Below are positions 221 through 64,000 of a DNA stretch of 64,000 bases, one piece after another. Origin of the DNA: Catajapyx aquilonaris. Its lineage: Eukaryota. The translations under genes and the position numbers were made by a program. The notes under the pieces were generated by a model. It worked only from the letters and a program-made list of their open reading frames with translations. It did not search any database and was not told where the DNA came from. Within the stretch, counting starts at the first letter, position 1; each line of letters opens with the position of its first letter. The stretch lies in contig KZ538055.1 in assembly GCA_000934665.2 (NCBI GenBank), forward strand, positions 1-64,000, in the 5' to 3' direction.

Positions 221-1154
221 CTTGAGGAATTCCGGTGGGTTCTTGAAACAGCCAACTCCAGGAGGAGTTCCAGTCAGGATGATGTCACCCGGAAGCAGCG
301 TACAGAACCTTAAAGATGATCAGATCAGTACGTAGCAATCAGTGCACTCGCTGGAGGCATGTTGACTTACTTGGAAATGAAAGCTACGATGGCAGGCACC
401 CCAAAGACCATCTTGTCAGTGTTTCCATCCTGCTTCATGACCCCATTGACCTTGCACCGGATGCCCAGCTTGTGTGGGTCTGGTATCCCTTCCTTGGTGA
501 CCACGGCTGGTCCGATGGGACAGAACGTGTCCATTGTCTTGCCCAGGAGCCACTGACCCCCGTTCCTTTGCAACTGCCATTCACGTGCGCTGACATCGTG
601 AGCCACTGTGTATCCAAACACGTAATCAAGCGCCTTGGATTCAGGCACATTCTTTGCTGCCTTTCCGATGACTATGGCCAACTCCACTTCCCAATCCAGC
701 TCGGATGTCAGGTCGGGATAGATCAAGTCATCTGAAGGTCCGCATATGGAGCTGGGGAACTTGTTGAATATCAGTGGCTCGGTCGGTATGGGCTTGTTCT
801 GTTCTTCGCAGTGGTCCTTGTAGTTCATCCCCACACAAACGACCTTGTCCGGTGATGTGATGGGAGCCAGAAGATGGACATCCTGATACTGCAGTTTGGG
901 TGCCGACTTCACCAAGCTGCCAAAAATCATGAAAACAGTTACGCTGCAAAACCCTGCCGTGTTGTGACTGACCTGTTGACCTTCCCCATGCATTCCCCAT
1001 TGTGCAACAGTTGGACCAGGCTGCTTGGTATGGCCGGGTCGGCCGCACACAGGTCAACAATAGGTCCACGCGGGCCATCCAGCTGCACCCCGACCTTAGG
1101 CGGACCTCCCTTAGACGTGAACTGCACAAACCGACTCATGGCCGTCCTCAGCAT
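221..1154 (-). CDS. FAHD2: Fumarylacetoacetate hydrolase domain-containing protein 2-like (3'-partial; coding exons 1154-973, 916-371, 308-221; final exon outside or at the edge of the window)
   Basis: The spliced translation gives MSRFVQF...[16 protein letters not shown]...[12 protein letters not shown]...[13 protein letters not shown]...[14 protein letters not shown]...[16 protein letters not shown]...[27 protein letters not shown], the FAA-hydrolase family motifs. GT-AG introns at 972-917 (56 nt) and 370-309 (62 nt) keep the frame, and there is a donor at 220. The start could be ATG 1154 or 1139. A likely 5'UTR intron lies at 1236-1165. Confidence 0.93.
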
Positions 1155-4600: not shown

Positions 4601-4663
4601 CCCCCGACTGGTGCTCCAATCCTGGCCATGGCCGCCAATTTCCTCCAGGATCAACTGCTGTAA
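1621..4663 (+). CDS. M17 (cytosol/leucyl) aminopeptidase, W07G4.4-like subfamily, 514 aa; exons 1621-1637, 2622-2760, 2825-3079, 3136-3248, 3306-3481, 3604-3794, 3872-4054, 4125-4217, 4286-4663
   Basis: All eight introns are GT-AG and phase-compatible (1545 nt CDS including the stop). The metal-binding and catalytic motifs LVGKGVTYDTGGADIK...MSRDKCG and IGNTDAEGR are present, plus IATLTGHA and YSHLDIAGS. Exon 1 (17 nt) is the least certain. Confidence 0.93.
1972..2134. repeat. Long near-perfect inverted repeat (fold-back/MITE-like) in intron 1 of the aminopeptidase gene
   Basis: Arms 1972-2038 and 2069-2134 are reverse complements apart from a 1-nt indel, with a 30-nt spacer. No clear target-site duplication. 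Confidence 0.9.
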
Positions 4664-21730: not shown

Positions 21731-22040
21731 TATAAGGGACGTGTGCGCGCCATACATACACGTGCACATACTCTGTACGCTCTCTTTTCATTTTTAATCT
21801 TTTCCACCCCCCTTAAAAAAAATTAATTCATCTCGGACCCTTCTCTCGCACCTTTTTTGATCCCTCAGGGAGCGATAGTACCAGCTGTAGTGGTCGGCCA
21901 GGTTTTCTTGGGGTCGGTGGGAGGGGTTGAGGTGCTTTTGGAGAGGGGGGGTGAGGGTAAGAGGGGGTAAGGAGGCAGGGGGGGGGGGGATCTCTCGGCC
22001 CTATTTAGCCGGTGTCTGCAGGTCTGCCACGGTCAGAGCG
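21731..22040 (+). promoter_or_regulatory. Candidate core promoter(s) of the tal/pri/mlpt transcript
   Basis: TATAAG at 21731. An alternative is TATTTAG at 22002 with an Inr-like TCAGA about 30 nt downstream (22033-22037), about 55 nt before smORF1. Which one is used cannot be decided from sequence. Confidence 0.45.
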
Positions 22041-22090
22041 ACGGGTCGTGTGCTCTGAGCCGGTACACCTTTCGCATCGTATACGCAACA

Positions 22091-22129
22091 ATGGGCGGGA
22101 AGACGTTAGATCCGACCGGGTTGTACTGA
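22091..22129 (+). CDS. tal: Tarsal-less/polished rice/mille-pattes micropeptide 1, MGGKTLDPTGLY (12 aa)
   Basis: ATG GGC GGG AAG ACG TTA GAT CCG ACC GGG TTG TAC TGA. It ends in the diagnostic LDPTGxY-stop motif and has a good initiation context (CAACAATGG). Confidence 0.93.
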   Translation: MGGKTLDPTGLY

Positions 22130-22156
22130 AGTTTTGGGACAAGAGCATAGCTGGTG

Positions 22157-22201
22157 ATGTCCAAGATGCCCGAGACGCTGGACCCGACGGGACTGTACTG
22201 A
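22157..22201 (+). CDS. tal: Tarsal-less/polished rice/mille-pattes micropeptide 2, MSKMPETLDPTGLY (14 aa; 11-aa MPETLDPTGLY if started at ATG 22166)
   Basis: ATG TCC AAG ATG CCC GAG ACG CTG GAC CCG ACG GGA CTG TAC TGA. This second LDPTGLY-stop ORF starts 27 nt after smORF1, and all differences from smORF1 across TLDPTGLY* are synonymous. Confidence 0.93.
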   Translation: MSKMPETLDPTGLY

Positions 22202-22238
22202 GAGAGCAGGTTGCCTGACTTCCTCCAAAGGGGACGAG

Positions 22239-22697
22239 ATGGCCACGGACGTATGGGTGTACCATCCGGAAGTGAGTTGGGCCTGCAGCACCTGCGATGA
22301 CCTGTTGTTCCCAGATGAGCAGGGAACTTCTTCTTCAATAGCCGGTGAGCATAGTATAAGAAGTGGAAGGGGGGAATGCTGGTCGTTGACCCTGTACTTC
22401 CGCGTTGTCACATGTCCCAACCAGCCGGTGTCGCTGGTCAGCCCAGGGCGGGTCGCACCCAGGGTTGGAAGGGAGCTGGGGCCGCCCCAGGGTGCTGGGT
22501 TGGAACTAGGGGCCGGTCTGGGGGCAGGGGCAGATGGGGCAAGGGCAGGGCAGTGGGAATGGGAGGGGTCGCGGGCCAAAAGCTGGCAACCGCGTCTTAT
22601 ATGCTGCCTTGTGTTTCTTCCTGGTTCGAATCGTACCTCCCAGCCCTTGCCCGTTTACTGGGTCACAGCTGCTCCAGCCCCGACCATTGCCAGGTAG
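22239..22697 (+). CDS. Possible third, motif-less ORF (152 aa) on the tal transcript; translation uncertain
   Basis: The ATG has a good context (GAGATGG) and lies 37 nt after smORF2. The ORF ends before the poly(A) signals. No recognisable homology; the central part is G-rich and low in complexity. Confidence 0.25.
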   Translation: MATDVWVYHPEVSWACSTCDDLLFPDEQGTSSSIAGEHSIRSGRGECWSLTLYFRVVTCPNQPVSLVSPGRVAPRVGRELGPPQGAGLELGAGLGAGADGARAGQWEWEGSRAKSWQPRLICCLVFLPGSNRTSQPLPVYWVTAAPAPTIAR

Positions 22698-22859
22698 ATG
22701 GTCAGTCGCAGAAATACCAAATTTGCAAGTGGATTCGCGTCAAAATGAACATTTTTGGTGGGGGTCCACACCACTGTTTTGGGCTCAGAAATGCGCCAAA
22801 ACGCCAATGCGCCAAAAAGACGTGTCTTTTACCTTCACCGATACGATTTAAGAATTATA

Positions 22860-22917
22860 AATAAAGTGATTTTTGATTGGTGTTGTTCTAGGCTTCGTAG
22901 CAAATAATGTGAATAAA
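22860..22917 (+). terminator. Candidate polyadenylation signals of the tal transcript
   Basis: AATAAA at 22860-22865, followed by a GT/T-rich tract, and again at 22912-22917. This implies an mRNA of about 0.85-1.2 kb. Confidence 0.6.
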
Positions 22918-34748: not shown

Positions 34749-37700
34749 TTAATCGTCTCTGAATCGGAAGTCTAGGGCGGTGCTGAGCTTCCTCCAGAAC
34801 CGGAGCAGAGACATGTTGAAGGCCTCCTCAGGCAGGTACGGACAAGGCATGTCGCACGTACCCTCTCCGGAACCTTGCTCCATTGCTCGAAGGTACCGGT
34901 AGAATCGACTGGCCTCCTCCGCTTTCACTTGGGCTCGGTTCACCCTGAAAGGACGGACCAAGCACAATTACATCAGCACTGGACTCTCCCCCTCTCAAAA
35001 CCCCCAAAAACAGCCAGAAGGAAAAAGTGACCATTCCCTCTCTAGCCCCCCTCCTCAAAAAAAAAAGGACCCCCTCCTTCGTTTCCTCTTTTCAAGGCTG
35101 CAAAGGTACCGAAATTTTTCTTTGACACCACCCCACCCACCCCAAAACCCCAAGAGAGAGAGAGAGAGAGAGAGGTCTTCGCCCTCTTGTTTGTAACCCT
35201 GACCTTCAAGGGAGGGAAGAAGCCGGGACAAGACCTCGGAGAAGAAGAATTGGGGGAACCCTCCTCCTCCAAAGAGGAAGGAAGGAAGGAAGGAAGGAAG
35301 AGGAACCTTCCTCAAGTTCGAGCGGGAAAACATCTCCAGGCACTCACTCCAGACGCTTGAAAATTATCTCGCTGATTGGGTAGTACTTCTCCGGATCCAC
35401 AGACATCTCGCATATTATACGCTGCTGGCAGGTGTCTTCCGGAATCTGAAAAAAATGTGAATCCCAGAATTTTTTAAAAAGGAGACAATATCCATAATAG
35501 AGACAAGTTGACCTTGATCGTCAGTCAAATATGTATAGGAAACCTGCCAGGTCATTTGACTTGCGTAAAATGAGAGTGTAGCCAAAATATTTTTAGAATA
35601 TTCGCTGAGTGAGAGTGACTGGTTGCGGTTCTTGTGACTTCTCGACATGTGGACAAGCTGGTAAAGTGCACCAAAAACAATCCTCATGCTTCAAGGCCTT
35701 CCCCACAAGAATGGGGTTACAAGTGCTACAGGGTGGTCCTGTAATGCATAACAAAACGGTGTACACTCTCGCTCTCCATCTGCCCAAATGTCCCAACTGC
35801 TTTTGGAAGAAAAAAAGAAAAAAAAATGTGGGGTCAACGACCGGGCAGAGTGGTTGGTGGCAAAGGTGCAACATCGTCTGCTTCTGGAGGAGAAGAAGAG
35901 AGAGAGACCCCCTTCGACCAATGAATGGGGGCTCACAAAGCAAAAAGATAGTCATCCTTATCTATACACAGAATAATAAGGATAGAAAGAGGAGGAGGGG
36001 TGTTGGACAGATATTTTTTTTGTCAATATTTTTTTGGGGGAGGAGTGTGTGTTGTTGTTTTTTAAAATATCTTGGAGGGGGAAGCTTCTCAAGTTCTGTC
36101 ATGGAAAAAAAAGTGCGTGACTGCAAGTTCTCCCTCGAAGATGTAAGATTATCGGCTTTTTTATCCTGCTAGGATTAATAGGCCTGTTTCCACAACTGCG
36201 TTTTTATTCAAATGTATGTGTAGCACCCGGGAAATTTTTTTACACTGGATAATATATCGAAATAAAAATCCACGATCAGATTTTTCGGTCCAATATTATA
36301 GACAGCTGTCAATTCGAAAACGGCCGATTTCCCAGAGAAATGTTATAATTATCCACTCAAAAACTGATAAGGCTCGAAACCCCAATTACCAGGCGAGGTC
36401 GCTGGTTGTAACCAGTTTTATGACCGTCACTTGTCGCTTAAACTATCATTAGCACCTCTTAAGAGTGGTAGCGTAGGCTTTCAAGTCGCCCGTAATTCAT
36501 TGGCGGGGGCTTTTCGAAAGGAGAGAAAAAAAAAGTTTAAACAATTAGGCGTTGATTTCATTATCCCTGGAAGACTTGTCATAATTTCTTGCCAGCTCGA
36601 AAAGAGCCGTGCACTCTGCCAAGGACTCGAGTGCAACACGGTCACAAATAAAGCGAGTTATTGTTCGGGTGACGTGTCCGGTTGTCACCACTCTTTGTGG
36701 GTGATTGGTTGGGGGGTGGTGAAACAGAAAGGCTAGAGAGAAAAAGGTGGGTGGTTTTTAGTCGGTCGGAGTGGGTTGGGTGATGGCCTGCTGTTGTGAA
36801 GAGAAGGTCTTCCGAGGCCGTGGTTTAAGAGTGAGAGCGAAAAAAGGAGGAAGGTAACATACACACAAAAGGAAACCAAGAACTACTAGGGACCGAATAT
36901 CTCAAGGGCGAGTTGGGCAAGGTCAAAGGTTCCGATTGTTTGCGAGCTGTTATTCAGACAGGTGAATTTCTGACCTGCAGGTAGTCGAAGTAAGTTGTGA
37001 GTCTGTCCAACTCCACAGTGTACGAGGGGTCGTCGTAGCTGTCCACAGGGGGGTCAGAGGTCACGGGCTGGACGTCCCGTCTGTATCGCTTGCTGAAGTT
37101 TGGTAGGATAAATGACAGCGGGATTGTCACCAGCAGACCTGCAATAATTATTTTCTTTCCGTCAAGTAGTGCGTGTCATTACACCTGTGTAGGAGTCTTT
37201 CAAAAAATTGTCCTTGGCCGATCCTGTAATAATATTGATGTCACCGGCTGCCCACGTTATTGAAGCTGACACCCAGTCGAAATTAGGTTTTTCCCAGTCC
37301 AGCATGGTTACATGCAGAGATGTATCTTTTGCAGCATCAGAGAAGGTTAACCGGCTGACTGGTGCTACCGGACCGGAGTTTTTTTATTCTTTTTTTGCAA
37401 GCTGTGATTCGCCAAAGACCTTGCCAAAAGTCCTCCTCTCACTCGACTGGGACAGGAATTATTGCAATAGTGCAACAAACACCAGGCGGTGAAGCATTGG
37501 CCGCCCACATTACAAGTACCTACATTTCCGCCATAATTGCTTTGTATGTACAGTGGTTATGAATGGCCGCGGCCTTGGAAGGAACTTTTTTTTTTGCAAC
37601 TCGTAACTCAGTGCACAATAATGCATCGGGTGAATGAAGCCTACCAATGTCAATCGGCGCCTCGGTGTTGAAGTAGACGAACCGCTTTTGACGGTGACGA

Positions 37701-37768
37701 CCTTTCTCAGATGATGTGACAGGGATGATGCTCAGGCAGGTCACCAACAGGATGCTGCAAAAGTTCAT
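34749..37768 (-). CDS. Secreted DM4/DM12-like cysteine-domain protein, 193 aa; exons 37768-37645, 37138-36975, 35445-35348, 34944-34749
   Basis: Three phase-compatible GT-AG introns. The protein has a signal peptide MNFCSILLVTCLSIIPVTSS, then RQKR-FVYFNTEAPIDIGLLVTIPLSF, a second basic site KRYRR, and a domain ELDRLTTYFDYLQIPEDTCQQRIICEMSVDPEKYYPISE...SRFYRYLRAMEQG...C...CP. The exon structure is firm; the family label is by eye. Confidence 0.82.
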
Positions 37769-40365
37769 CTCTGGAAATATATAGAGTCGGATATGCAGAT
37801 ATCATGAATTGGCCAAGATTTTGTCACTCTTTTTTAAAATGGGCATATGGAGCACCCTGTATTGCGGAAGTGATTTTTAATTCAGAGAGAGCCAACACTT
37901 TGTTGCTGGTGCTATCGAAATGAGGTCATCAGGTGATTTACAGGCTGTAAATGACCATTGCGAGTGACAGATATGAACACAACTTTTCCTTGATTGAAGG
38001 TGTCCAGACCTTGGGTGGAAATGGCCACATGGTATGGACATCATCATAAACGACAAAGCAAGCTGGCCACTCCATCAATCTGGCCGTTAAAACGGACGGT
38101 TGTTGCTTCTGGTGCCGGCCTTTTTTAAAAAAATCAACAGGTTCATACAATGACGCCCACATGGTGGTCAAACATGAACAGAGAAAAGCATGTAACTGTT
38201 CCTATATATTTAAAATAAGCGAAATTGCTAACCATTGGCTAGCAACACCTTGTGTTTGATCAGCCTGACTGATTGGTATGCTCGACTCGGATGCGATTCG
38301 GACACCTAAAGGAGTTAATTACGTCTCAAGGCTGACGTGTTATTCGAGTGGGGCGATTGTTCCTGTCGCAGCAGCATTGACAAGTGCATGGGGATGCAAG
38401 ATTGTCAACCGAGATGTCTTTGTTGATGGTTGGTGGTGGGGGCCAGCCAGCTATTATAGAGCCAATAATAAAATGAGCCTTTGTGGTCTGGTGCTTGCCT
38501 GAGCCTGGTCGAAGGTGAGCAGGAAACAACGTAACACTCGGGCCCTTCCTGGTTCATCAAATGAAAGGGGGTCGGACTCGGCTATCTTCACATCGAGAAG
38601 AGGTTATAAAATTAGCACCGAATGTATATAAGCCGAGAAAAATTATTCAGCAGGTAGAAAAGTCCATGGACTCGTAATGTGAACGGGGACGCACGTTGAA
38701 GCAGATGGATTTGCTCTGAAAAGTTGTGTTACTTTGTACACATTCGGCGGAGCACTTGCGTTTTCCATGTACCCTGTATTGTTAGCATTATCAATTTGGA
38801 AGACCTCATATAGGGTTTAACGACATTTGCATGAAATGAGCCAACCTCTCTGTCAATTAGGAAGCCACAATTGCTCATTGTTTTGTCGGTGAATGGCCAG
38901 CCGGGATCGGAATTTCCGGTCTTGAGCTCTTGCGGTGTCGGTTTTACCAATCAGGGATTTATAAGTTGGCCGTCTGCCAGCGCCATGACCTTCCCCAACC
39001 AAGGGACTCGGTCAGTGATGACCTTGACTCATTTTCCCACTAACCGCGGAATTTTTTTAAAATCCGCATTTTTATACGGCCGAATTGTCGTGTTTTTGAT
39101 TCGTAAATTCGGATAAGTACCAGGTGTCACATAGGGGCTCGTCCGGAACGAGATCAAAAAACCTTTCAGGGGCATCATGTACAAGAATGCGATTTGGAGC
39201 GTTCTCTTACATATTCAGTTGCTTTGAGACCTTGTCTGCTTGTCAAAATACAACCCGACCGGCCTCCACAGCTGGAGACATTCATGGTGACAACAGTATT
39301 AGTGAGCCATCCTTATATCACTCGGGCCAGTCCTTCCTGCACTTCTTTTGGGAGACACAAATCGTGTCGGATTTACAGGGCGTAAAATGTCAAGAGGTGT
39401 GACCCCGAGAGGCATCTGAGGTCACGTGCAGTCTCTTTATATTGAGAGAGGCTTAAGACCACGCGGCCTTGTCGGCTGTTGTTTTTTCTCTCCTTGTTCT
39501 TCTTCCTTGGAACCAGTTCTATATGGGGGCCCCCCATCAACATCCTAGAGGAAGGCCAAGGTCAGGTTTTTACTCCCACTGACCAATGACCATGAGACAA
39601 AACGGACACAAAAATTCACTTTCTTTGGGCACAAGCGTTGACCCGACGGCAGTTTACTTTCTTCATGGTAGTCTGATCGGAAAGGAGATAAAAATAAAAG
39701 GAGACTCGAATGCACGAATAACTACACGGCATTCTTGCAACGCATTATTGTTAAAAGAGGTATCGCATCTGGTGGTCACACGAACATACCATGGGCTGAT
39801 CAAATCTGTAGGGTCATACTGTCCCATGATTTTTGAAAACAATGTTCAGTTACATGAACAATAAAACTACAAAGTACAAGGTGTGTCCCAATTAAATTAT
39901 TGATGAAGGCATTAACTTATGCAAATACTGTTTGCCCCATAATTCATAACGTCTCGTTATCCTACGCGTGCCCTTGAGCAGTGTATGACATGAGAAATCA
40001 CCCATCATTATAATTTGCAGAGAATCCGTCGTAACTACACTGACATATGGCTCAGACATCGCTGCTAATTAAGACATGAACAAACCTGTCGTGTCACGGC
40101 TTACTGACGCACCAAGCTGTTTGTGACAATGATGCTCTCAAGTAGTTAAATCAGGATGTATCTCCGCGCGTCTATATTAAGACATATTTTTTTTTTACAT
40201 TGCCATTCGGAAATAGTCATGACACCAGAAAAGCAGTCCTTGCAATCGTGTGTTTTGCAGGTTGCAAGACTAGAAGGTGGGAAAAACAGGGGATTGTCAC
40301 GGAAAATACCGCGCCTAACGACAATATGTTTTTCGCGCGATTGAAAGGCTCGAGAATAGACTTAC

Positions 40366-40445
40366 CTGCGGAGGAGGAGGAGGCCGAACTGTGAAGTGAT
40401 GTCTGGCTGTGAGCTCAGGGGTTTCTTTCGACACCTTATTTATTC
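40366..40445 (-). promoter_or_regulatory. Candidate core promoter and non-coding first exon of the DM4/DM12-like gene
   Basis: Strong donor CAG|GTAAGT at 40366/40365, with TAAATAA at 40442-40436 about 30 nt before Inr-like sequence. A matching acceptor TTTCCAG ends 2 nt before the ATG (37771). Confidence 0.5.
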
Positions 40446-43400
40446 ATACATGGAATGCAGAAACTGAAGAGCGGCCAGACTTCCTCGTCCTCGGGCAGTG
40501 TCAGCAGCACCAGGTGTGCGAAAATTGCAACCAGCAGAAGACTCGTGTTTTCATTGCACCTCCGGAGCATGCTTGTCCTTCCAAGGTCACTCCCATTCAC
40601 CTTTTCCCTTTGCCGGGTTCAAGGAATCCGAAGAATCTGGATGATTGCAGGGAATTCGAAATTTGGCCACTGGCACACAGAGGAAGTGACCTTCGGGCAA
40701 GGGATGCTTGGTGGGCGGGTGGCCTTCTCCAGCTGATATGCAGTCCTTGTCCGAGCACATTGCAGTGTGTTGCACTTAGAGGTCATTGCGTTACATCTCA
40801 CAGATCAGTGTAAAACAAACCGCGCAGTTACTCACAGTCAAAATTGCTTGCAAAATATCATATATTTTACGTGGCGCAGCTGCAGGTGGCGTGGGATAGT
40901 AATATCGTTTGGAGGTCGTTGAGGCGAAATAAGTCCAAACTGTAAGCCACACTTGGCAAAAACAATTACAGATTATGAAATATCTCAGTGCAAACGAGCT
41001 GTCTCCATTGTTGAGGTTATGGACATCTGTTTGCCTGATGTGTGTGTGTGTGGCCATGTGAGCAAATGCAAACAAATTGCACAATGGAGTCCTATAGCCT
41101 TGGTGTGGGATTTGGGAAAACTACACGAATAGCTCAACCATACATGTAAACAAGCATTTCACCACTTTTCAGCACCAAAATGTCATTCCTCGATAAATTA
41201 TCGCGGGTTTTAAAAGTCACTCTCAAATTGCCGGGGAAAAAAGTCGAGCTCGTTGCTTTTCTCCGGATATTGGGAAATAATTCGAGTACATTTCTGCTCA
41301 TACAGTATATTACATTTCAACGGGTGTGTCAGTTGACGAAATACGTGGAAATGACCCCCTGGAACCCTTCAGATTGCTCCTGATTGGGAAATGAGCTAAT
41401 ACGTGCTAATAAGACACGAACTTCCTGCACCTTGGGCGGTGTATAGTTGTGTCGTAATAATCGGCAAAGTATTACCGCAGCCTCCGAGTGGGAAAGAGTA
41501 GTAATGAACCGTAACGTAAACACGAGTCGGTACCGTTGGAGTCATTATACTCCTCAGCATTGGTGCCCCCGGGGGGAAAAGCATCCTTCGCATGCACACG
41601 TTCTGTTGCTGTGTGTGTGTAGTCTATACTGCCACCAGTTATAACAGAAAAATGTTTTTGACATAACAAAACGCGAGTGTTGTGTAAGCCGGAAGAGACC
41701 AACTTCTCTCCAGAGAGAGTGTGTGGGTGGGTGGGTTGGTGGTGGTGGTGACCTGGCGCAATCCCAGTGGCTCATCGGACAGGTACGCGGAAGAAAATGT
41801 TGCGAGCGAAGAATAAGACCCGCCAGCACTTACTGGCTCCGGGCCTTCCTGCATTTTCATTCCCTCAACACTAGCAGGCTGCTGCTTGGTGCTACCTGCT
41901 GCAACACGTGAATGCAGCATGTACAACAGAGTGACACTTTGTTAGCACCTTGTACTTATACTCAGTGGCAGTAATACGCACTTAAATCCGCACTCACATA
42001 CGACCAGGAACTTATTGTATACAATACACACTGCAAATTTACCTTTACGAATTGTTACCTTGCAACCAGCTTTTATTGTCGAGGTGAGTTACCTTTATTT
42101 AATGGTAGAAATATTGCCCAAGTCCTGTATAAAGTAGCAGGCGAAAAGGTCAATCCTGCCCGGATATGAAACCCATTCTGGATGCCTAAAACCAGTTCCC
42201 GATATTCCCGAGTGACCTATACAGATTATTGTCCGACATTTATCTTCCTCTTTACATCCTTACTTTGAGGGGAAAGTCTCGAGTTTTTATAGTAGGAAGA
42301 TACATGACAGCTGGTCCTTGGTGTGAGGCTGATATCCTATAAACTATAAAGGTTAGAAGGCAAGGATCGGGAGGTCACCTCCAAAGAAGCTGCTGCTGGC
42401 CATGTGCTCGATGTTCCATAATGTTTCAGAGAAAACTCCGAATAGGCTTAAGTACCAGAGGGGCACTTTATGTACAGATGTCATCCGTAGCCATTTACTT
42501 AAATAATTTAAAAAAATAACGATGATAATGACATCTGTAGATAAATTGAGCTCATTCTTGTCGGAAACGTCCTGGACAGATTGTTTTGTTCGTTGGTTGG
42601 GCGCGGTGGTATTAAAAGGACTCTCAATTTCGGCAGGTCCTCCTGTAAATAAAAGAAGTGGTCAAAAAGCCTTTGGGAATAGCCCCCCCACTTTCTGAGG
42701 AGCCGTTACAAGGTTGGATATATTGCTGCATCGGATCTATTTCGAGGGCCCAAGGCGACGTCCACCAAGCCAGAAAATGGCCTGGCTTGGCTGCAATCAC
42801 TTTCGCCCTTGGGATCCGGAAAACCAAACTGCAAAGAGAGCGACAACAGGTTGTCTCGAAAAAATTTAAGCTCTCTGTGTATATTATACGAGGGGTGGAT
42901 TGTATTGGGTCGGCAGTAAAAGTGGAAAACGGTAGCAAAAGGACAATCGGGGCGCATCAAAGGAGAGCCCAAAGCCAGCAGGTGAAGGTTCTTTACCAGG
43001 GAGGGGGATTTACGACTTCCCTTCGTCACTTTCGGTAGGACCTAAGACGAGGTGGTCAGCCTAGGTTAGTGGGCTCAGGGGGGAATAATATAAGCTCTCT
43101 TCTCTCGATAGTTTATTTCGTTTCCGCAGGGGAGAGAGTGCTGGACACGGTGGGGGAGAGAAAAAGAAGACGAGAGGGAACCCTAAAAAGAAAGGGAAAA
43201 CAGGGTTTTTGACCAAAACTGAAACGTTGTATGGCCGCCTTTTTTGGGATCAGGTAGAACCCTTCAAAAATGCGGGGTAAAAGTAAAAACACCTTGATAG
43301 CCCCCCCGAAAGGGAGTCTCAACTGAATGGCTTTATTTATTTTGGTTGGTCCTCCAAAAGGCCCAAGAGTGAGTCATCCTGGAATGTTTTTTGGAGGCAT

Positions 43401-44154
43401 TTATTGATGGAAATTGAAGCATGAATCCGAGTGAACCTATTCTTCTCAGACAGGTCACTTCTCGAATATATATTTAATAGGTAGCTTTACTTCATCGTGT
43501 AATAAGCTGTAGTCGTAATAACAATATTTCTAGAAAGTGAGTAGGAGTGTGGACTGATGCGTTAATAAAAGTGGCACAGTCTTGGCAGTTAATTCAACAA
43601 GTGGTGCTGATGTCACAATGGCCAGCAATGACTGCTACAATGTCACCAATGGGACGAAAAGGCCTGTGACGTCAATACTAATCTCGGACATGTCGTACAA
43701 TAGCTGGTACCGGATTTATCCGGGGAAAATGCGTCACTTTTTTGACTACAAGTCGATCCCAATAATTTATTACGATGAGTGGATCCTGCAAAGCCTGCAG
43801 CCTGAGCGTCATAATGAAATAATGAAGGCCAAGCCTTAAAGGTAAGAAATGTCACAAATCAGCCGTTGTCATAATATCACACGTCAGAATGCAAACAGGT
43901 AGCCGCGTCCAGGGTTAATAAACGTAAACGCGTTTCTTGAACTGCTGGCAGATGGCAGGAGACTCTGGTTCCTTCCCAGCTGCCATCTGGTTTCCGTGGC
44001 CAGGACTGCAGCGAAAACCTCTCCCCTGAATGGTCCGTGACCCAACATGAAGGCAGCAGGCATGGCTTTCAGGATACTTTTCCTTCATCGCTCGTATCCT
44101 GGTCCACACACAACCCTTCTCACCACTCTAGTGAGTAGTGATGCGATGGTCACG

Positions 44155-44202
<48 letters not shown>
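44155..44202. repeat. (GTG)3(GTA)13 microsatellite
   Basis: Directly visible; it produces the spurious poly-Val ORF 44047-44406. Confidence 0.95.
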
Positions 44203-46680
44203 ATGTGGCCCATAAGGTTGCCTATTATGCCCTTTTGCGACTTTTCATGCCTATTTGGCCATTTTTGGGATAGCTTTTTGAACGGTTCGAAGCAATTTCG
44301 GGACTTTTTGGGCCTATTCCGGACCTATATAGTTCCTTCAGAGCCATGTTTTTTTTTGCGGAGTATTTTTTGTGCTCCGGACAGGACCAAAATAGTTCAG
44401 ATTTAATACGAATAATGTTGCCGTGACGCATAGGAAGCCGAAAAGCGGTTCCAACCAGAGCAAATGATACTTGCTTGCACTTTGTATTTTGCCCAAGATT
44501 TGTGATTTTCTGAATTTATATTGTTGTTATTCGGGTTTTCTCTGGTTTGTGACCTTGCATTTATACTTTAGGCATATAAAATTTGTGCCTCTTTTTAATT
44601 TTCTGCAACATTATCCTCCATACGCCCACAAAGTAAAGCTTTTGTGCCTATTTTAGTTTTTGTTTGTGTATATTTAAGTGCCTGTTTCAGGGTTTTTTCG
44701 TGCCTAAAAATCCGGACTCTATATAGTTATAACATATTTCCCACACCTTCACAATATGGGAATTTTTCCACCTTCATAATCTTACACACTTGCAAGTACA
44801 ATACATGTATAATACACTGCATGTGATGCCATAAGAGAGCTGTGCCACTGTAGAATTGTTATTATTGCAACGTATGAGTTATTATCATTGAATTGAATTA
44901 CAATATTACCGATTGTCGAGGGTCATGTATTAAAATCTAGAAAATATTTACCGGTATATAAAATAGAATTACATTTTGTACATGAGCAAATTGATGCCAG
45001 CGGAAAATGTGACTATTTCTGATGCTGCATCATCTTTATCTCCGCAATTTGGAAAATAATATTATGAACGATTATAAACTAATTTAATGCTTGCAAGTTA
45101 GTGCTAAAATTATGACAAAGAATTGTGAAGATTTGGAAAGCACTGTAAGTCTGTAACAGTTGTATAATGAAAAGGAATGTTTAAAGTTAAACACAATCGA
45201 ATTTTTAAAAATCCATTGTTACGATAATGACAGAAAAATTATTTCCATGTGCAAAAGGATGTTTTCAGGATCAATTCCGCGACAAACATACAGTCACACA
45301 ATGCAAGAAATAAATCATGCCTGGAAAGTCGTCACAACTTTCCAAGCTCTTATTCAACTGGACCCTTTAGCAAAATATATTGAGATCTGTTTGTAGGTGT
45401 TTCAGTTAATGTAATTGTATTGCAGATTAAGGCATAAAGCATTTACTTAAATTAACGTTAATATGCTGCTTTATGCATTGTTTTAAAGCATCTTGTTTAG
45501 CATAATTTGCAGGCAAAACATTGTTGAATAGACAAATCCTGATAGTAATTAACGTGGCAAAAACCAGGCCATGAAAAATGCGATGCTAATCTTCTGAGAA
45601 CTAATGTTCTGTACGTCCATGTAGCTAATATTAATGGCTAAATAATAGAGCGATAATGTATCCAGAGAGTCGAAACCTGTGTCAAAACGTGACACCTTCT
45701 CACAAGAGGTCCTGCGAAGGTGAAAAGAGACTGAGGCTGACACAGCATGTGTAGGTGGCCGACAGCCAATAAAAGAGTGACCTCATTTCACCGCGTGAAT
45801 GCTTCTTCGGCACAGCATCCAATGCCTTGTGGTGATGGCCATTAATCCCACCATTTAGTGGACATAAGCGACCATAAAGTCCGCACTTTTCAAGCGAAAA
45901 ACCACGTAAATGCAATATTGTCCCAAGTGGTTGGGTTGATGTCCATTCGGCTGAATCGCCTTTGATTGGTGGGTTAGGCATGCTGTGTTTTTTTACGATG
46001 CCGACAGCATAATTTTTCCCCTATTTAAAAAAAAAACCTGTTGTGTCCTGCATTCGGAGCCTACTGGACTTGAAAGGCATTTTCTTGCTTGTCCTACTTT
46101 CTGGCCGTGGCCGTTCCTGGTGACGTAGGAGTCACCTTGACTTCTCTGGGTTAGCGGGAAAAGTCCTTCTCAGAAAATCCTCCTTGCAGTTGAGGAAAGA
46201 CTCAATGGACGAGCGGATCAACGTACGACCAACACCGGGACAGCACAATAATAACACACAGCATGCGATGACACTTCCTAATATATACCGTATGCTCTGG
46301 CCTTTTTTTTCACTTTTTTTCCGTTGGTATAACAGCGACATTAAAAGAGACTTCATTTCAGAAGAGTTTTAATAAATTACATAGGATATACAGAACGAGT
46401 GAGGAGGAGGGGAAAAAAAGTACAAAGCAGGATCCATAAATACACAGGAAAATTAAACGAGCCATTTTTTAAAAATAAATAGAAATGCCATAGACATTAG
46501 TGGTTTTGATTTTTAAACTTGAGATGTGACTTACACCTAGTTAAAGCTTTCGTTTGTAAGGTTTTTTTGGTCCCATACTGACCGTATACTACATGATTCC
46601 CTATCACGCCATTAAAAAAAAAAAACAAGTGCATTTGTCGAAAAAGTGCATATTAATTAACAATTTTCGATCTATAGGAA

Positions 46681-46776
46681 CTTGGGCACTGACGTCAACA
46701 GGAGCCTTTAATTGTTAATTTAACTGCTGACATTGTCGAAAGTAATATTGTTTAATTTTTGACGTCACTATCCAAG
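46681..46776. repeat. Degenerate inverted repeat (MITE-like relic)
   Basis: CTTGGGCACTGACGTCAA versus TTGACGTCACTATCCAAG, complementary at 15 of 18 positions, with an AT-rich spacer. Confidence 0.45.
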
Positions 46777-48677
46777 TGCCGATTTTTGCTATTGTGTCAG
46801 CATTTGTGAGACTCAAAATAGAATGGTCTAATGGCCATATTCTTTGAGCTCAATAAATACTGGCTGAATCCACCATTCATTCAATTTATCAGCAGAAGAC
46901 TAGCATTCTCTCAAATAATATACCCCCTAACACAGTTTACAGCTTGTCTATAAACACATGTCTACAGAAAAAAAGTCATGTCATAATAACTTTCATGACT
47001 GAACATCACAATCATGCACTTCCTCACACAATCGCCCAACATATTTTCACATGTCGCTTTGAGCAAATAACTTTTGAGCCCTCGTCCAGTGATCGGTTTC
47101 CTTCTACACCAAGCAAGAGCAGAATATTTAATACACGCATGTACCACATGTACATCACTACACACGACAGCAACACACACAAAAAAAATCATGACTGACC
47201 AGTCACCATGATCCGATTCTGGAGGCGGTTACCGCCAGTTAGAATTGGTTGCTTTTTACCCTGAAAAACCCCTCGGAGAGTCGCGTAGAAGGAAGTGCTT
47301 ACAACACACATGCAACCGTGCAGGTTAATTGTCCTCATTCCTTTAACGAGTCTTGCCTGCTGGTAGGAACATGAGTATCACCTGAGTCATTCCGGAATTC
47401 CCCCCCCCCCCCNCCCCCCCCCCCCTTTCTGTTGATTTTTAACTTGTGGATAAAAGATGTGAGTGTATAATGAGAATGAATTTATGGGGAGGGAAAAACA
47501 AAGTGTGTAATTGCACTTGTGATTTCTTCTTCTTCTTCTTCGGTGATATGAAAATGTGGATGTTTTGTGCGAGTGATGGTGATGGGGAGAAATAAAAGTG
47601 CAATAATATCACTGTGGAGTTTTTTTTAAAAAAAATATTGCCCATGGTGTCAACTTCATGTAAATGTCATAACCTGCTTTCCAAGCACCTACATTAATGC
47701 CCGGTGTATCCATGAACTTTTTGCTAGGCCGTCTTGAACTCATTGAAATCCACTACCACTGACGCACTGTCAAAAAATAATCACTATGATAAATTAGCTA
47801 ATTTCTATTATATGCGAATCCGGATAAAAATGGAGTGCTTACTTCCCAAATTATTTTGAGAGTTTTTAACTATTCATGCACTTGGCCTGGTATATTTTCA
47901 GCAAAAACGTAGCCGTTCAGTTTGATTAAAGCAGCGTTAAAATTGTAATTTGACATGTTCCATTTTCTATTCAATTACCTGAGAAATATTTCCGTAGAAT
48001 AGTGCCAAGATTTACGTTACTGTATATGGAAGTATGGTTAACTGAAATATGTTTTACTGCACATAAGTGATATTTATGAGCGAAATTAGTGAAAACCACT
48101 CAAATTAATTGGAAAAATTGTGCAGTTACTATATAAGTTTAAATGTGCTACAAGGTGGTCAGACAGAGATGCTACGACTGAAACTACATGTGCGTATCAG
48201 CTACAGTACAACTGCTACAATAATGCGTGCCCAGTTCGAACCCCCTGTGCAGTAAATCAGTGAATGTGCCATAATCCTATATGGTAATTAATCAGTGTTG
48301 AAGACATTCTTAGCCAGGGTTTCTCTACCATTTGATGAACTACCCATCGGTCAGTAAAATGTTGGAGAAACCAGTCATTACTGGACAGCTAACACTGACA
48401 CATCTGCTTCAAATGAACGATTATGATGATCAGCAGGGGTGCCACTGGAACCTGTCACGTAAGAGGGTCTTCAACTATATTCGTGGCGTGGATGACAGTG
48501 ATGTAGGCCCTGTCCCGGCCTCAGCACTACTAATGCATTTAAGGTGCTTGTAAGAAGGCCCCTGTGTGTTGCGGTCTCCCCATAAAACCGTTACTGTCTG
48601 ATTTAGAACTACTGTACGTAAATCGAAGGGCTGTGACTTTTAAAAAAGCTGCTCACAATACAGGCAGCGTGACTCAT

Positions 48678-51600
48678 TCATTGATCATGGATGGTGGTGG
48701 ACTCGACGACCACCGGTGGCGTCTTCTGGGTGCCATTGTTGCTTCTGTGTGCGAATGTGCCGGAGGATGCTGGAAGGACCACGGACGATGGACCATTGTC
48801 GCGTCCGTTCCGTCGTCCGTCGCGTCCGTTTCCGATCAGCTCGCTCAGCTGGTTGTAGGTGTTGACCATCGGAAGGTTGGTCAGCTGCTCCGTGTCGGTC
48901 GGACACGCAGGGTACAATGAGAGGCATTCCTTGCCTCCCTGGCCGTCCTTGGCTGCCTTCATGTACTTGAAATACCGGAGAACCTGAGGACTGTTGCTCA
49001 CCGGACGCTTCAGCTCGTTCGGGTGCCTGGTCAGATAAAATGGACTGGATTTAGTCACTCGGCAATAATTAATCAGGAGGCGGAGAAATTATTACCTGGA
49101 CACCTGTGTACCAAATCATTGTTACAGTGATAATAATAGCACTGTCCAAATGAGTCCATATTTCAAGTGGAGTTGTAACCCTCGGCCTTCCTCAATGTTG
49201 CGTCATTGTATAACTGAATTATATAACAATGGGGGGCTGCAACTTTTGTATTAAAAAGCATTAAAGAGGGATGTGGAGGGTGAACTGGACCTTGCATGTG
49301 AACCATATTTCGCGATGCATGAAATTAGGTCTGCATGACACCACGGTACATGACTGTACCACTTTGCTTCACATGTTTGATGCGCAAGAAATAAGACAAG
49401 AAAATTAAAGAAGAGACAATGTCGGTGCGGGGACCCGCGTTTTTCTATGTGAATCCCCCCCCAATAAGAAGTAAGGGACATTTCGGAATCTGCTTACGTG
49501 AGGGTCTCATTCGAGTGCTTTAGTCACGGGTCATTCTTGTAGGTCACTTTTGTGGCCAAGTAATTTTCGCATTTATTATTTTTTGGCAAATTTTTTGGAT
49601 GGGCAACTCGTGGTCTGTAAAGAGTCTCGTCTGTCTTGGTGAGGTAATACGCAACACTAGTCATCCTGGCATTGAAGCATTAGTCCCTGTCTGGGGTGAA
49701 TTAACTCTTAATTACAGAGGACGCTTCTCTCAACACTGCTCTTCACGCTATCTGCTGCTGTTCAACCTCTGAGCAATATTTTCAACTGTGAAGTACGTGG
49801 CAGATAAATCTGAAACAAACGGTTCCGAAAACTCTGCGAAACACTCCTGAGAGAAGTGAATCTCATGTTAGAAATTGAATAGCCTGCCAATGTGCAATGA
49901 GAAGTAAGCAGTTTAGTGCTACATATGGTCATATTTGCATTAATTATTTCATGTGGTAGTGTAAATCAAATATTGCTTTGCTCCGGTAAATTCCGGTTTG
50001 CAGCTTATTGAATAGCCATGCGCTACACATTGTTGCGAATTTTAAAAAGGCAGCCGACTTACCAGGAGGTATAGGGTGAGAATTGAGATTGCAAACAACT
50101 TTTGTACCAAACACTGCGGTACTTTGCTGTACAGAAGGCTGTTACTTTTGGCCTGGAGTGTTACATTAGCATAGCCCGTTTTGTACCGCAAACACTGAAA
50201 GAATTATATGCCAGCTCATGCACTGGATTATTGCAATGGAATGTATATACCTGCTAAGTTGTGCACTGAGGAGATTGCTGTACGGGGCGTACTTGACTGG
50301 GAACTTGTAGATGCTGCATACCGCCCTCTCCCTGCATCCTTCCTCTTTGAATCCAAGGTGTGAGAAGATGGAGTCTATCCTGGACAAAAGGGGGCTGTAG
50401 AATGGGTCGAAGGAGTCAATGTGCAGCATCGACGGAGGGATCAGCTTGAATCCTTCCTCCTGCTGAGGCTGCTGGTGCTGGGGCTTGGCGTTGGCGGTCA
50501 GCAGCGGGAGGGTCAGGCTGGTGGGACCCTGGACGCCTCCGACGACGCCCCCAGGGCCCCCGCCTCTGACCTTCTCCATGAACTTGGCCAGGTTGGCCAG
50601 GTCATCCGGGCTGCGCGGAGGGTGATTCCTGACGTTTGGATTAGCAATGCCGAAGAACCCGGAGTCAATGGCCTGCTCGTTGATGTTCGTCCCGGACGTC
50701 TCGTGGTAGTCCGGATAAGGATGGGCGTAGTTTGGGATCTGAGGGCGTCTGTTCTTGGCGGCCTGCTGCTGGGCTGCGGCTGCGGCTGCGGCCACTGCGG
50801 CCAGGTTGTTGTGGAATGGGGAGTGGGCCTGCGGGTTGTGGTGAGTGGCCGCCGCAGAGAGGGGCCACCCTGCGTGGTCGTCGTATGCGTCCAGTCCTGC
50901 CCCGAGGCCGCCCCCGTGCAGAAGGTCCCCGTACCCTGCCAATGGGTCCTCGTAGTCTCCCACCCCTGGAGACATCAGGTCAAACAGGCTCTTCAGGGGT
51001 CCTCCGCCTCCAGAACCTCCGAACCAGTTGCCGAACATCATGGACTTGAGGCCGAACAGGATAGGGGTCATCATGCCCTTCATGGCCAGGAATACCAGGC
51101 CTATCGAAATACCCGCCACGAAGCTAGGTCCGGATGATAAGGCCAATTCTGAGGAAATAATTATTTTCATTAAACTTCACAAAATAACTTTTGGATGTCA
51201 CCTCAGGAAGGTGAGGTATTCACGTTCAACAATTTAAGGACTGGCGACAAAAATATTGTAAATGAAGTGCCATCAGTGCCCTTAATTCCTGAGAGTGTTG
51301 CAAGTCGTTACAGTCCAGCATCATGTAATGACTGCTGCATGACACGATTCACTGAGAACAATGCCGACTGCAATCACGTTTTGTCCGAGGGCAGTTTGGA
51401 TTCACTTAATAATTAATTACGTGGTGCTAATTACTCGACTCGACAATGTCACCTTTTGAGACCTCTGGAAACAGGTTTGGTTGCCTTTTAATAAGAAAAG
51501 ACAGGATAATAGTTTTTTGATGCCTCCAAGAAAATAATTCAACCTGACCTCTGGTTTGCAGCGAAACCAATTAAAAATCAAGTTGTATTACGGGATGCAC

Positions 51601-54600: not shown

Positions 54601-55778
54601 GATTGTCTCTAACAGTGAAGCTTATATGGAGTGCAAACATTCTTATCAATTATAATATTTGTTATAAGAATCTCATAATTATGCCATTGCTCCACTCTAC
54701 ATGTTATTAGACCAAGGATTCAACCAATCCTATCAATTCATTAATTAACAGTAAATGTAAATAAAGTAAAAAAAAATATTTGGTCGAAATCTACCTGCCC
54801 TTAATATACTGTTTTGCCCTCAACAAGATATTTCTGGCTTCTACTTAGATACGCCCAATATTTCACATGTAAATCACATCCCTGGGCATTCTTGTTAGCC
54901 ACATTGTTGCCATTTTAAGTGTGCCCAAGTACGCTTCATACGGGAAGTTTACGCAAAGGCGACGTGCCGCATTTTAAACGTCCTGAATGCTGCCGGTTTG
55001 CGAGGTTGACGAAAGACCCACTTTTACTAGTAACACAAATTATTACTTTTTCAATTATATTCCCTGACAAAAAGCCAATAACTTGTAGGGCAACGAGGCA
55101 TGAAATATGGCACGTGGTCCATTCGAGGATGGCACCAACCTACTTTGGCCAGCACTTTCACCGGGTCCTCGTGTTGCTCTACACACACTTTAACACAGTG
55201 TCATCTCGTGGAGGTGTGGCTTTATACTCACTGAACTCATCTTTGAAGAATGGGACCTTGACCCGGAGGTGGAAGCCAGGGTCGATCATGGTCCTGGCCA
55301 TCTGAGGCAGGGCGAGTCCGACCGATGCGTTGACCACCCTGGGCACCTGCACTTTCAGCACGTGTGTGCCCAGGAACTCCTGGATCCTCCTGAACACCAG
55401 CTGGTCTATGGTGTCACCGTGGTTCTTGAGGAACTCGGGCAGAGGGTAGCTCATGGTCCCGCGACCCCTGCCCGTAGTCACCTGCTGCTGGTCATCTTGC
55501 ACTAATGACACGAAGCTGCCCAGCGGGATCGTGTCCCTATCCAGGAAGTCCGAGATCATGGAGGCCAGCACCACCTTCTTGCAGAAGAAGGTCTCCTGCT
55601 TTCCTTCTCCCGAGCAGGACTTGCTGGTGGCCCTCTGCAGGTACCTGAGCGTGCCGTGAGCTGACTTGCCATGGTCTCCGCACAGGTGATGACTATTCAG
55701 CTTGCACTTGACGTACCTGGCCGGTACCGGTGCCAGCAGGAAGAGGCCCAGGAACAGTAGAGATAATACGCGAGACAT
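48678..55778 (-). CDS. Osiris family protein, Osi17-like, 597 aa; exons 55778-55232, 51148-50251, 49026-48678
   Basis: Two phase-compatible GT-AG introns (phase 1 and phase 2). Features in order: signal peptide MSRVLSLLFLGLFLLAPVPA; two-Cys region CSGEGKQETFFCKK...DFLDRDTIPLGSFVSLV; DUF1676-like DQLVFRRIQEFLGTHVLKVQVP; hydrophobic segment FVAGISIGLVFLAMKGMMTPILFGL; C-terminal FDPFYSPLLSRID...CRERAVCSIYKFPVKYAPYSNLLSAQLSR...RYFKYMKAAKDGQ...CLSLYPAC, which matches my recollection of the Osi17 C-terminus. A small additional exon inside intron 1 cannot be excluded. Confidence 0.8.
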
Positions 55779-62800: not shown

Positions 62801-64000
62801 TTTTAGACCGCTCAAAATGTGTCCAGAAGGCAGCAACGTGCTTCAGTTTTAGTGAGGGCTAATGTACTAGCAGCTGCGCCAATAATTGCTAATTGGCACC
62901 AGAATTCTTCCAGGTTGTCTGCCGGTGACCTTGGGCAGAGCCAGACTTCTTCTTGGGCTGGAGCAGTGGGCCAGGTCAGACACGTGGGGACCAGACAGGC
63001 AGCCAGGAGGACCCTTAAGAGTTTCTTTTCAGTTCAAGATCAATGATGCCTAGTAGTTGCCTACCACTTGCCAAACTCGATTGTTCGTGTAGCCGGGCAT
63101 CACATACACTCGGTAAATTACAGCCTCCGTATACCTGAGTGCACTGCTTCTGTAATCACACTTCGAGATGACGACACATGATACAGGTCAGTTTTCTAAC
63201 CAAAGGCGGAAACAGATTTATTTCTGATGCAAAAAAATGAGGAGGGTGGTGCTCACGATTATTGAGGTAATGCTACACATTAGAATTGTTGATGACGCAC
63301 TTGGTGACCGCGGTCGATTCATGTCCCACGATTCGTTCTGATAGCATGTACCACTACGTTTTGAACCAGGTCAATTGTTGTGAATATCAATAAATTGGTT
63401 TTGGTATAAGGAAGAAGTGATGGGACCGCTGCCAGTTGCCATCAACAAAATAAGGACACAACAGGAGTCATCGTTGCCATTTTGTTGTCTAAAAAATCAG
63501 TTATTTGAACGAATTGATCTTGCCAATGATTCAATTTTATTGTTGCAAAAGTGGCTAGATGGGTCGTTTTGACGGGGAGACTAATCAGATTACTCCTTAA
63601 TAGGATCTCAATTTGGGTTTTTGTCAAACGAAACCTGTGCTCTTCTCAGTACACGTGACTTCAGATTGATGCCATAAAACCTGATCATTTTTACTGCGCG
63701 ATTATAACGTACTAACAACATGTCAGCCCTTTTAAGAAGCAGCATTTAGTACACCTATCAGTTCATTACTGCTGATGACAAAGTGCGTTTCAACAATGAT
63801 TATACTCGGGTACTGTTTATTGCGACAATCAGGTAATTTGCGAATAAAGTGCGAGTGTAGAGCCAGGTACCGTTTAAGTGTCAACCTAGAATAGGCAGTC
63901 TTTACGTCGCCCGACAACAATACTGTGTACAGTTTGACCTACTGTAATTCTGTCAGGTTAATTGCTCACCAAGCTCATGATGTGCACCAGGTTTGAAAAA

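Follow-up and report, generated by a model that had tools for sequence, protein, structure and literature searches.

We analysed a 64,000-nucleotide stretch of the Catajapyx aquilonaris genome (positions 1 to 64,000 of contig KZ538055.1, hereafter the window), which contains two genes with a domain of the DM4/DM12 (hereafter DM4/12) family, gene A and gene B. The window is part of the 139-kb contig G000:C135; a third gene of the same subfamily, gene C, and an NPF receptor gene (NPFR) lie on this contig outside the window, where positions are given in kb or bp of the contig. In our preferred reading, to which we assign a probability of about 0.75, the locus represents an old group of clustered genes from a single DM4/12 subfamily next to NPFR in a japygid dipluran, and gene B is an Osiris gene of the Osi24/Osi17 group. 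The value of the finding lies in its context, namely an Osi24-type gene with the NPFR linkage of insects in a non-insect hexapod, within a cluster of its nearest non-Osiris relatives.

The splice models of genes A and B were predicted from the DNA. Both genes are encoded by the minus strand, with 10.9 kb between them. In these models gene A consists of four exons coding for 193 residues and gene B of three exons coding for 597 residues, neither with an internal stop, and all five introns have GT-AG borders. The alignment with the orthologue from the springtail Allacma fusca spans both exon junctions of gene B. The start of gene B lies 5.4 kb past the point at which an earlier reading of this DNA (hereafter the sequence-only reading) had ended the feature. 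The parts of the two genes are as follows.

37645 to 37768, minus strand: gene A exon 1, with start codon, hydrophobic signal peptide (from hydropathy) and basic furin-like site; followed by a phase-1 intron
36975 to 37138, minus strand: gene A exon 2, with a short hydrophobic stretch, a linker and the first DM4/12 helix; followed by a phase-0 intron
35348 to 35445, minus strand: gene A exon 3, first half of the DM4/12 domain with Cys102 and Cys108 (DM4_12, 13.9 bits, E 0.094)
34945 to 35347, minus strand: gene A phase-2 intron of 403 bp, which interrupts the DM4/12 domain in codon +21 counted from the second Cys; position identical in gene C
34749 to 34944, minus strand: gene A exon 4, second half of the DM4/12 domain (Cys159 and Cys163), tail and stop
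55232 to 55778, minus strand: gene B exon 1, with signal peptide, two-Cys region (Cys55 and Cys66) and DUF1676 (PF07898, 40.5 bits); followed by a phase-1 intron
50251 to 51148, minus strand: gene B exon 2, with a hydrophobic segment (residues 184-216), a low-complexity linker and the first half of the DM4/12 domain (Cys454 and Cys460)
49027 to 50250, minus strand: gene B phase-2 intron of 1224 bp, which interrupts the DM4/12 domain in codon +22 counted from the second Cys
48678 to 49026, minus strand: gene B exon 3, second half of the DM4/12 domain (Cys516 and Cys523), Osi24-type tail, low-complexity end and stop (DM4_12, 12.8 bits)

Membership of gene B in the Osiris family was judged by the criteria of Shah et al. 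(2012). Exon 1 alone matches DUF1676 above the Pfam cut-off (24.3 bits), over profile positions 4-93 of 170. Hydropathy alone points to an N-terminal signal peptide (peak at residues 1-23, maximum 1.82), and DUF1676 is followed by the hydrophobic segment of exon 2 (maximum 1.81), a putative transmembrane segment that aligns with that of Osi24. The two-Cys region is aligned with the Osi17 pair in the profile alignment and is nearly invariant among the relatives. A profile of B-type N-termini matched insect Osi17 N-termini over 163 columns with a probability of 90.7. In addition, at least 14 unnamed exon-level open reading frames (ORFs) have the same exon-1 end, at a phase-1 intron, as gene B. 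As judged from its sequence, gene B truly belongs to the Osiris genes, within the Osi24/Osi17 group. It is either the orthologue of Osi24 or the one gene that gave rise to both Osi24 and Osi17 in insects.

Named Osi24 proteins are among the top insect matches listed for gene B, and their alignment runs through the tail, whereas that of Osi17 stops at gene B residue 528. All ten aligned Osi17-type proteins end within a few residues of the fourth Cys, whereas in gene B a conserved tail follows, which Osi24 has as well. The mean identity of gene B to Osi24 and Osi17 was 27% versus 14% in the membrane segment, 58% versus 51% in the DM4 domain and 17% versus 16% in DUF1676. These sequence comparisons make gene B look closer to Osi24 than to Osi17.

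The genomic position was also considered. A single-exon NPF receptor gene (G000:C135:124985-126613, minus strand) lies upstream of gene B at a distance of 69 kb, in the same orientation. Its named matches are all NPF receptors, and among the matches listed its identity reaches 88% with one unnamed protein and does not exceed 69% with the named ones. In Drosophila melanogaster and Anopheles gambiae, according to the supplement of Shah et al. (2012; PMC3284338), Osi24 is likewise preceded by an NPFR gene of the same orientation. The position of NPFR upstream on the same strand therefore favours the Osi24 identity of gene B. In Ephemera, the NPFR and Osi24-type proteins have the locus tags 009211 and 009214, and the contigs that carry them have the same listed length, 600,029.

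Insect Osi24 (CG15589; N. lugens Osiris24; 'Protein osiris 24' of Laodelphax and Nesidiocoris) resembles gene B in having a signal peptide, DUF1676, a Gly-rich hydrophobic segment, a low-complexity linker, a four-Cys DM4_12 domain and a tail, in lacking the AQXLAY motif, in lying downstream of NPFR on the same strand and, apparently, in the codon of the intron end. Gene B differs from it in its dipluran host, in the DM4/12 genes A and C that flank it, in an N-terminus equally near Osi17, and in that the Pfam genome search showed no Osi2-Osi20 cluster in the 55 kb downstream. Insect Osi17 shares with gene B the combination of DUF1676 and DM4_12, the two-Cys region and probably the same intron end, but its C-terminus follows the fourth Cys directly, its membrane region is longer and Lys/Leu-rich, and its gene is found well inside the Osiris cluster, not beside NPFR.

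The genome searched in this study was the 286-Mb assembly of 20,583 contigs. Queries with PF07898, an Osi17, an Osi24 and an exon of gene B itself matched gene B only, and no second Osiris gene was found at the limited sensitivity of these searches. Another PF07898 match (G000:C4581:5703-5849) was an ATG trinucleotide repeat and was discarded as an artefact.

The assignment to a dipluran rests mainly on COX2 of the assembly, which is 92% identical to that of Japyx solifugus, 86% to Occasjapyx, 80% to Parajapyx and at most 79% to the other matches listed; by taxonomy Japyx belongs to Diplura, outside Insecta. In a tree of NPF receptors, the nuclear receptor gene on C135 belonged neither to the insect group (SH-aLRT 93) nor to the springtail group (100). 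The search for 7tm_6 gave two weak matches and no clear Orco, which fits a non-insect and is not used as proof. Two contigs have mitochondrial-type sequence: G000:C8523 carries an intact COX2 and G000:C5905 a frameshifted COX1, probably a nuclear copy or an assembly error. The long open frames at G000:C453:69645-69911 and C742:1930-2187, with weak 7tm_6 matches, are probably gustatory-receptor-like.

A different explanation is that contig C135 comes from contaminating DNA of prey or of some other arthropod, either an insect or a springtail, and that gene B is not a dipluran gene. The closest named relative of gene B is indeed from a springtail, and the placement of the organism depends chiefly on a mitochondrial gene from a different contig. 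The receptor on C135, however, shares only 56-58% identity with springtail NPFRs and no more than 69% with the named insect and crustacean ones listed, and it lies outside both groups. Even springtail DNA would be non-insect. We regard contamination as extremely unlikely.

The springtail protein, Allacma fusca P0001, is uncharacterised. It is an orthologue of gene B across nearly the whole length and has both Pfam domains above their cut-offs (DUF1676, 26.1 bits; DM4_12, 25.0 bits). Its identity to gene B is 79% in the DM4 domain, and the two proteins group together with support of 100/100. It bears a precomputed PF07898 label but has no database name, and of these two genes only gene B has a demonstrated linkage to NPFR. 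Among crustaceans, Scylla P0066 and Oratosquilla P0075 have a B-type DM4/12 domain and tail (47% identity), preceded by a hydrophobic segment and a long linker of low complexity; unlike gene B, they have no two-Cys region. The Scylla protein shows a sub-threshold trace of DUF1676 at the expected place (12.4 bits, E 0.16), and the profile comparison for crustacean DUF1676 gave 27.1, barely above the maximum of 26.1 among 60 shuffles.

The sequence-only reading had drawn attention to two neighbouring genes on the same strand that share a C-terminal domain, and this observation held. The domains of genes A and B are 28% identical over 125 residues (BLASTP E 1e-14). Their Smith-Waterman score was 144, against a mean of 33 and a maximum of 55 for shuffled sequences, and none of the 2000 shuffles scored as high. 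The four Cys residues are common to both (102, 108, 159 and 163 in gene A; 454, 460, 516 and 523 in gene B), with a different spacing of the last two. Both genes have a phase-2 intron after the helix that follows the second Cys, and the one-codon offset (codon +21 in gene A and +22 in gene B, counted from the second Cys) is as had been noticed. The coordinates 35348 and 50251, which had been given for the introns, are the last exon bases, and the introns themselves start at 35347 and 50250. The description of the introns as near-identical applies to their position and not to their sequence (403 versus 1224 bp, best blastn E 0.21). No DNA similarity between the two genes was found at E<=0.1.

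The domain itself belongs to the Pfam family DM4_12 (PF07841 / IPR006631; cut-off 22 bits). Genes A and B were scanned as single exons, and their third exons reached 13.9 and 12.8 bits in this form. Pfam matches in the domain region of the two genes were limited to these and to a weak match to DUF7074 in exon 4 of gene A. Intact relatives exceed the cut-off, namely the Allacma orthologue of gene B mentioned above and a Cherax crayfish relative of gene A (27.8 bits). DUF1676 and DM4_12 were both matched at E<=0.05 in 32 of 75 scanned homologues, the 75 being the long or top-ranked ones among the 150 listed of 275 found. In a planthopper, Osiris17 and Osiris24 are each described as having a DM4_12 domain with four conserved Cys (PMC12825958). 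The suggestion that the tail of the Osi17-type protein is a DM4/DM12 module was therefore right, and it had already been published for both Osi17 and Osi24.

A model of the DM4/12 module of a close relative predicts a compact all-helical domain (AF2 mean pLDDT 81.7), and the model of gene B DUF1676 predicts helices with short strands (mean pLDDT 78.6). In the fold searches, the DM4/12 model gave a best Z of 4.5, with none of 48,161 chains at Z>=5, and the DUF1676 model a best Z of 4.0, with none at Z>=5; neither had a Foldseek match at E<=0.001. This lack of a clear fold match is evidence for neither a new fold nor a function. Matches in the ESM Atlas, including tubulin-tyrosine-ligase clusters, were all under 0.9 and were taken as noise. 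Genes A, B and C share with the DM4/DM12 family the four-Cys module, predicted to be all-helical, and the phase-2 intron after the second-Cys helix. They differ from its typical members as a distinct subfamily with a longer middle region and tail, with Pfam scores near or below the cut-off and with a weak alignment to the gene on contig G000:C10, a typical and unlinked DM4/12 gene.

The shared intron had been taken as a sign of a special link between genes A and B, and this did not stand. Gene C has a phase-2 intron at +21, exactly the position in gene A, and the C10 gene has a phase-2 donor at +22, exactly the position in gene B; insect Osi17 and Osi24 probably have it there as well. The Cys motif, searched as a pattern, was present in 133 of 150 listed homologues, and in 29 of the 133 the last residue is exactly the one at +22, Arg in 21 and Lys in 8. 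These ends would fit read-through of a phase-2 donor into a stop, in Osi17- and Osi24-type sequences alike. The pattern sorted 68 homologues as not continuing; most of the other 39 enter unrelated sequence right after +22, at least five of these 39 being complete proteins mis-sorted by the pattern. Since the phase-2 intron is common across the DM4/12 family, no special link between genes A and B follows from it. The intron shows common descent within the family and nothing specific to genes A and B, and the domain and intron that the two genes share are ordinary and mostly known features.

It could still be supposed that genes A and B are a special pair, either since a tandem duplicate of gene A was fused to an Osiris gene or since gene B shed gene A, and that the shared intron records this event. 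The two genes are adjacent and on the same strand, and in the tree a clade of A and B, 26 log-likelihood units worse than the best arrangement, was not formally rejected (p-AU 0.069). In the best tree, however, A and B are not sisters. The domain of gene B scores 500 with the springtail, 392 with insect Osi24, 285 with Osi17 and 285 with the crab, but 144 with gene A. The domain of gene A scores 145 with gene C and 183 with the Cherax protein. The intron is family-wide, DNA similarity between the genes is lacking, and the fused architecture of DUF1676 and DM4/12 is general in insects. A special pairing of genes A and B is thus very unlikely.

The evidence points instead to the subfamily as a whole. 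The order on the contig is NPFR (minus strand, 125.0-126.6 kb), gene C (plus strand, about 89.1-89.9 kb), gene B and gene A (both minus strand). Gene C (G000:C135:89103-89852) is the third DM4/12 subfamily gene; it has a second phase-2 intron later in the domain, and its 5' exons would lie at about 87-89 kb. Genes A and C encode short DM4/12 proteins that lack DUF1676. The mutual z values of A, B and C were 16-27, against 2-7 with the C10 gene. A genome search with the Cherax protein matched four exons, two in B and one each in A and C, and nothing outside this contig. In a tree of 57 rows, A, C and Cherax were set apart from 54 B-type rows with support of 99/99. Both A-type (Cherax) and B-type (Scylla, Oratosquilla) domains are present in malacostracans, and the two lines would already have been separate before the malacostracan-hexapod split. 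The old tandem duplication proposed in the sequence-only reading is accordingly plausible at the level of the subfamily, given the closeness of A, B and C and the Cherax matches, although A and B are not sisters in the best tree. In our reading, A, B and C represent a single DM4/12 subfamily that has stayed together at this locus, and for this cluster an ancient tandem origin is plausible.

The adjacency might also be due to chance if DM4/12 genes are numerous and scattered. A further DM4/12 gene does exist elsewhere in the genome (on C10), the genome searches are insensitive, and linkage in other species is without demonstration. On the other hand, three subfamily members lie within 55 kb, the Cherax query matched this contig alone, and the resemblance among A, B and C far exceeds that of any of them to the C10 gene. 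Chance adjacency is therefore considered unlikely. Two further observations concern this part of the contig. An ORF at 85.9 kb that weakly matches the DM4 profile (E 1.4) was not accepted as a gene. At G000:C135:79518-81434 (plus strand) there is an apparent small gene of three exons, with a signal peptide, Gly/Tyr-rich, hydrophobic and His/Gly-rich parts and a short C-terminal helix containing Tyr; its layout is loosely like the C-terminal half of Osiris proteins, and the one exon scanned had no useful Pfam match.

Several facts weigh against the reading of the locus as an old DM4/12 cluster with an Osi24-like Osiris gene. The AQXLAY motif is absent from gene B. It is absent too from the named Osi24 proteins P0151 and P0008, and the only match, a loose one, is in the Osi17 protein P0069; since named Osi24 proteins also lack the motif, its absence fails to separate gene B from accepted members. 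The B-type N-terminal profile is closer to Osi17 than to Osi24 (E 1.2e-6 versus 9.2e-5). The best concatenated tree joins gene B and Allacma to Osi17 with weak support (65/64), and neither alternative was rejected (p-AU 0.153 for B with Osi24 and 0.32 for the other). As to the linkage, the relatives in Oratosquilla and Cherax lie on sequences differing in length from those with NPFR, so that linkage is unsupported there, and the Allacma orthologue of gene B and NPFR lie on different short contigs. The NPFR tree is a single-gene tree from a quick search under a simpler model, with an unstarred insect branch. The grouping of A, C and Cherax joins long branches, with a bootstrap that is not settled. 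The PF07898 genome search scored five candidates, and the count of one Osiris gene is a lower bound. The searches of the own genome score few candidates, so that placing the whole subfamily on this contig is likewise a lower bound; the paralogue counts come from single-protein and Pfam genome searches, which found one DM4_12 match.

Some of these facts would be explained if gene B were the orthologue of Osi17 and Osi24 had been lost or missed. The concatenated tree agrees with this, and the N-terminal profile match to Osi17 covers more columns than that to Osi24. The tail present in gene B and Osi24 is, however, missing from Osi17, and the identity in the membrane segment and DM4 domain is higher to Osi24. 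NPFR linkage is a trait of Osi24, and the Osi24 genome query matched gene B alone. We therefore hold Osi17 orthology to be quite unlikely. The label 'Osi17-like', under which gene B had first been described, is probably wrong in view of the tail, the two identities and the position relative to NPFR, with the tree leaving the question split.

In the reading that we prefer, genes A and B would share the domain and intron by descent from a DM4/12 ancestor that already carried the intron, and their lineages would have split before malacostracans and hexapods diverged. As to function, knockdown of Osi24 and Osi17 in a planthopper is reported to cause death, hatching failure and cuticle defects of wing or ovipositor, with soft or small cuticular structures (PMC12825958). 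Drosophila Osi24 and Osi17 are listed among lethal knockouts, and no olfactory phenotype is reported for Osi24 (bioRxiv 2024.02.06.579014). Osi23 is described as endosomal and as shaping the cuticle envelope (bioRxiv 444729). By analogy, gene B may be a membrane-anchored protein of the secretory pathway or endosomes in the cuticle-secreting epidermis, with DUF1676 facing the lumen, and we lean towards the view that it helps to deliver or shape new cuticle at hatching and moult. The side on which its four-Cys domain lies would depend on the long hydrophobic segment, a single membrane pass placing the domain in the cytosol and a hairpin in the lumen. If the Cys residues form disulfides, the hairpin would be needed.

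Gene A would, by the same analogy, be a secreted or membrane-tethered DM4/12 protein of the same tissue. Its hydropathy shows a borderline stretch at residues 35-57 and no clear second membrane segment, and its domain is therefore probably lumenal or secreted. Upstream of gene A, at about 40366-40572 of the window (minus strand), the sequence shows a short upstream ORF whose start is hydrophobic and, near 40366, a strong splice donor, possibly a 5' untranslated exon of this gene.

How the Osiris family arose can be proposed only tentatively, and we put the chances of the following proposal at somewhat less than even. The family may have come from a pre-insect DM4/12 cluster beside NPFR, in which one gene gained DUF1676 and a membrane anchor. 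Gene B would be the undivided descendant of this founder, which in the insect stem would have duplicated into Osi24 and Osi17. The gain would have taken place before hexapods diversified, or perhaps earlier if the malacostracan N-termini are degenerate DUF1676. After the duplication, about 20 copies without DM4/12 would have followed, and Osi24 would have kept the original place beside NPFR. As for genes A and C, they would then be surviving non-Osiris members of the parent cluster.

Other features were noted elsewhere in the window. A fumarylacetoacetate-hydrolase-domain gene in a single ORF lies at 367-1053 (minus strand; PF01557, 182 bits). Facing its tail region is a multi-exon gene like M17 leucyl aminopeptidase at about 2700-4663 (plus strand), the last exon of which has a weak PF00883 match. 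The stretch 22005-22864 is GC-rich and contains, on both strands, several overlapping candidate ORFs of 110-180 residues, rich in Pro, Gly and Cys. At 62812-63033 (minus strand) there is an open frame of 73 residues with a signal-peptide-like start and several Cys, in which no in-frame ATG and no Pfam match were found.

Osiris or DUF1676 genes are stated to be restricted to insects in three papers (PMC3284338, bioRxiv 444729 and PMC12825958), of which bioRxiv 444729 says that Collembola have none and relates the gain of these genes to the porous cuticle of insects. Weak matches to Osi17 and Osi24 among expressed sequence tags (ESTs) from Folsomia and crustaceans had nevertheless been noted by Shah et al. 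(2012; PMC3284338). No report of Osiris genes in Diplura was found in a literature search that left most subscription journals outside, and the main text of the Campodea genome paper has no mention of 'Osiris' or 'DUF1676' (PMC6938034). Because the EST matches and the PF07898 label of the Allacma protein came before, the present result firms up an old hint.

A DUF1676 gene that passes the cut-off in both a dipluran and a springtail moves the origin of the family back at least to the hexapod ancestor, and the order of NPFR and Osi24 known from insects is kept in the dipluran. This points to expansion, and not invention, as the insect-specific event. Sequences of the gene B type provide an outgroup for rooting the Osiris family, and a lone gene in a culturable springtail would permit a test of the ancestral function without redundancy.

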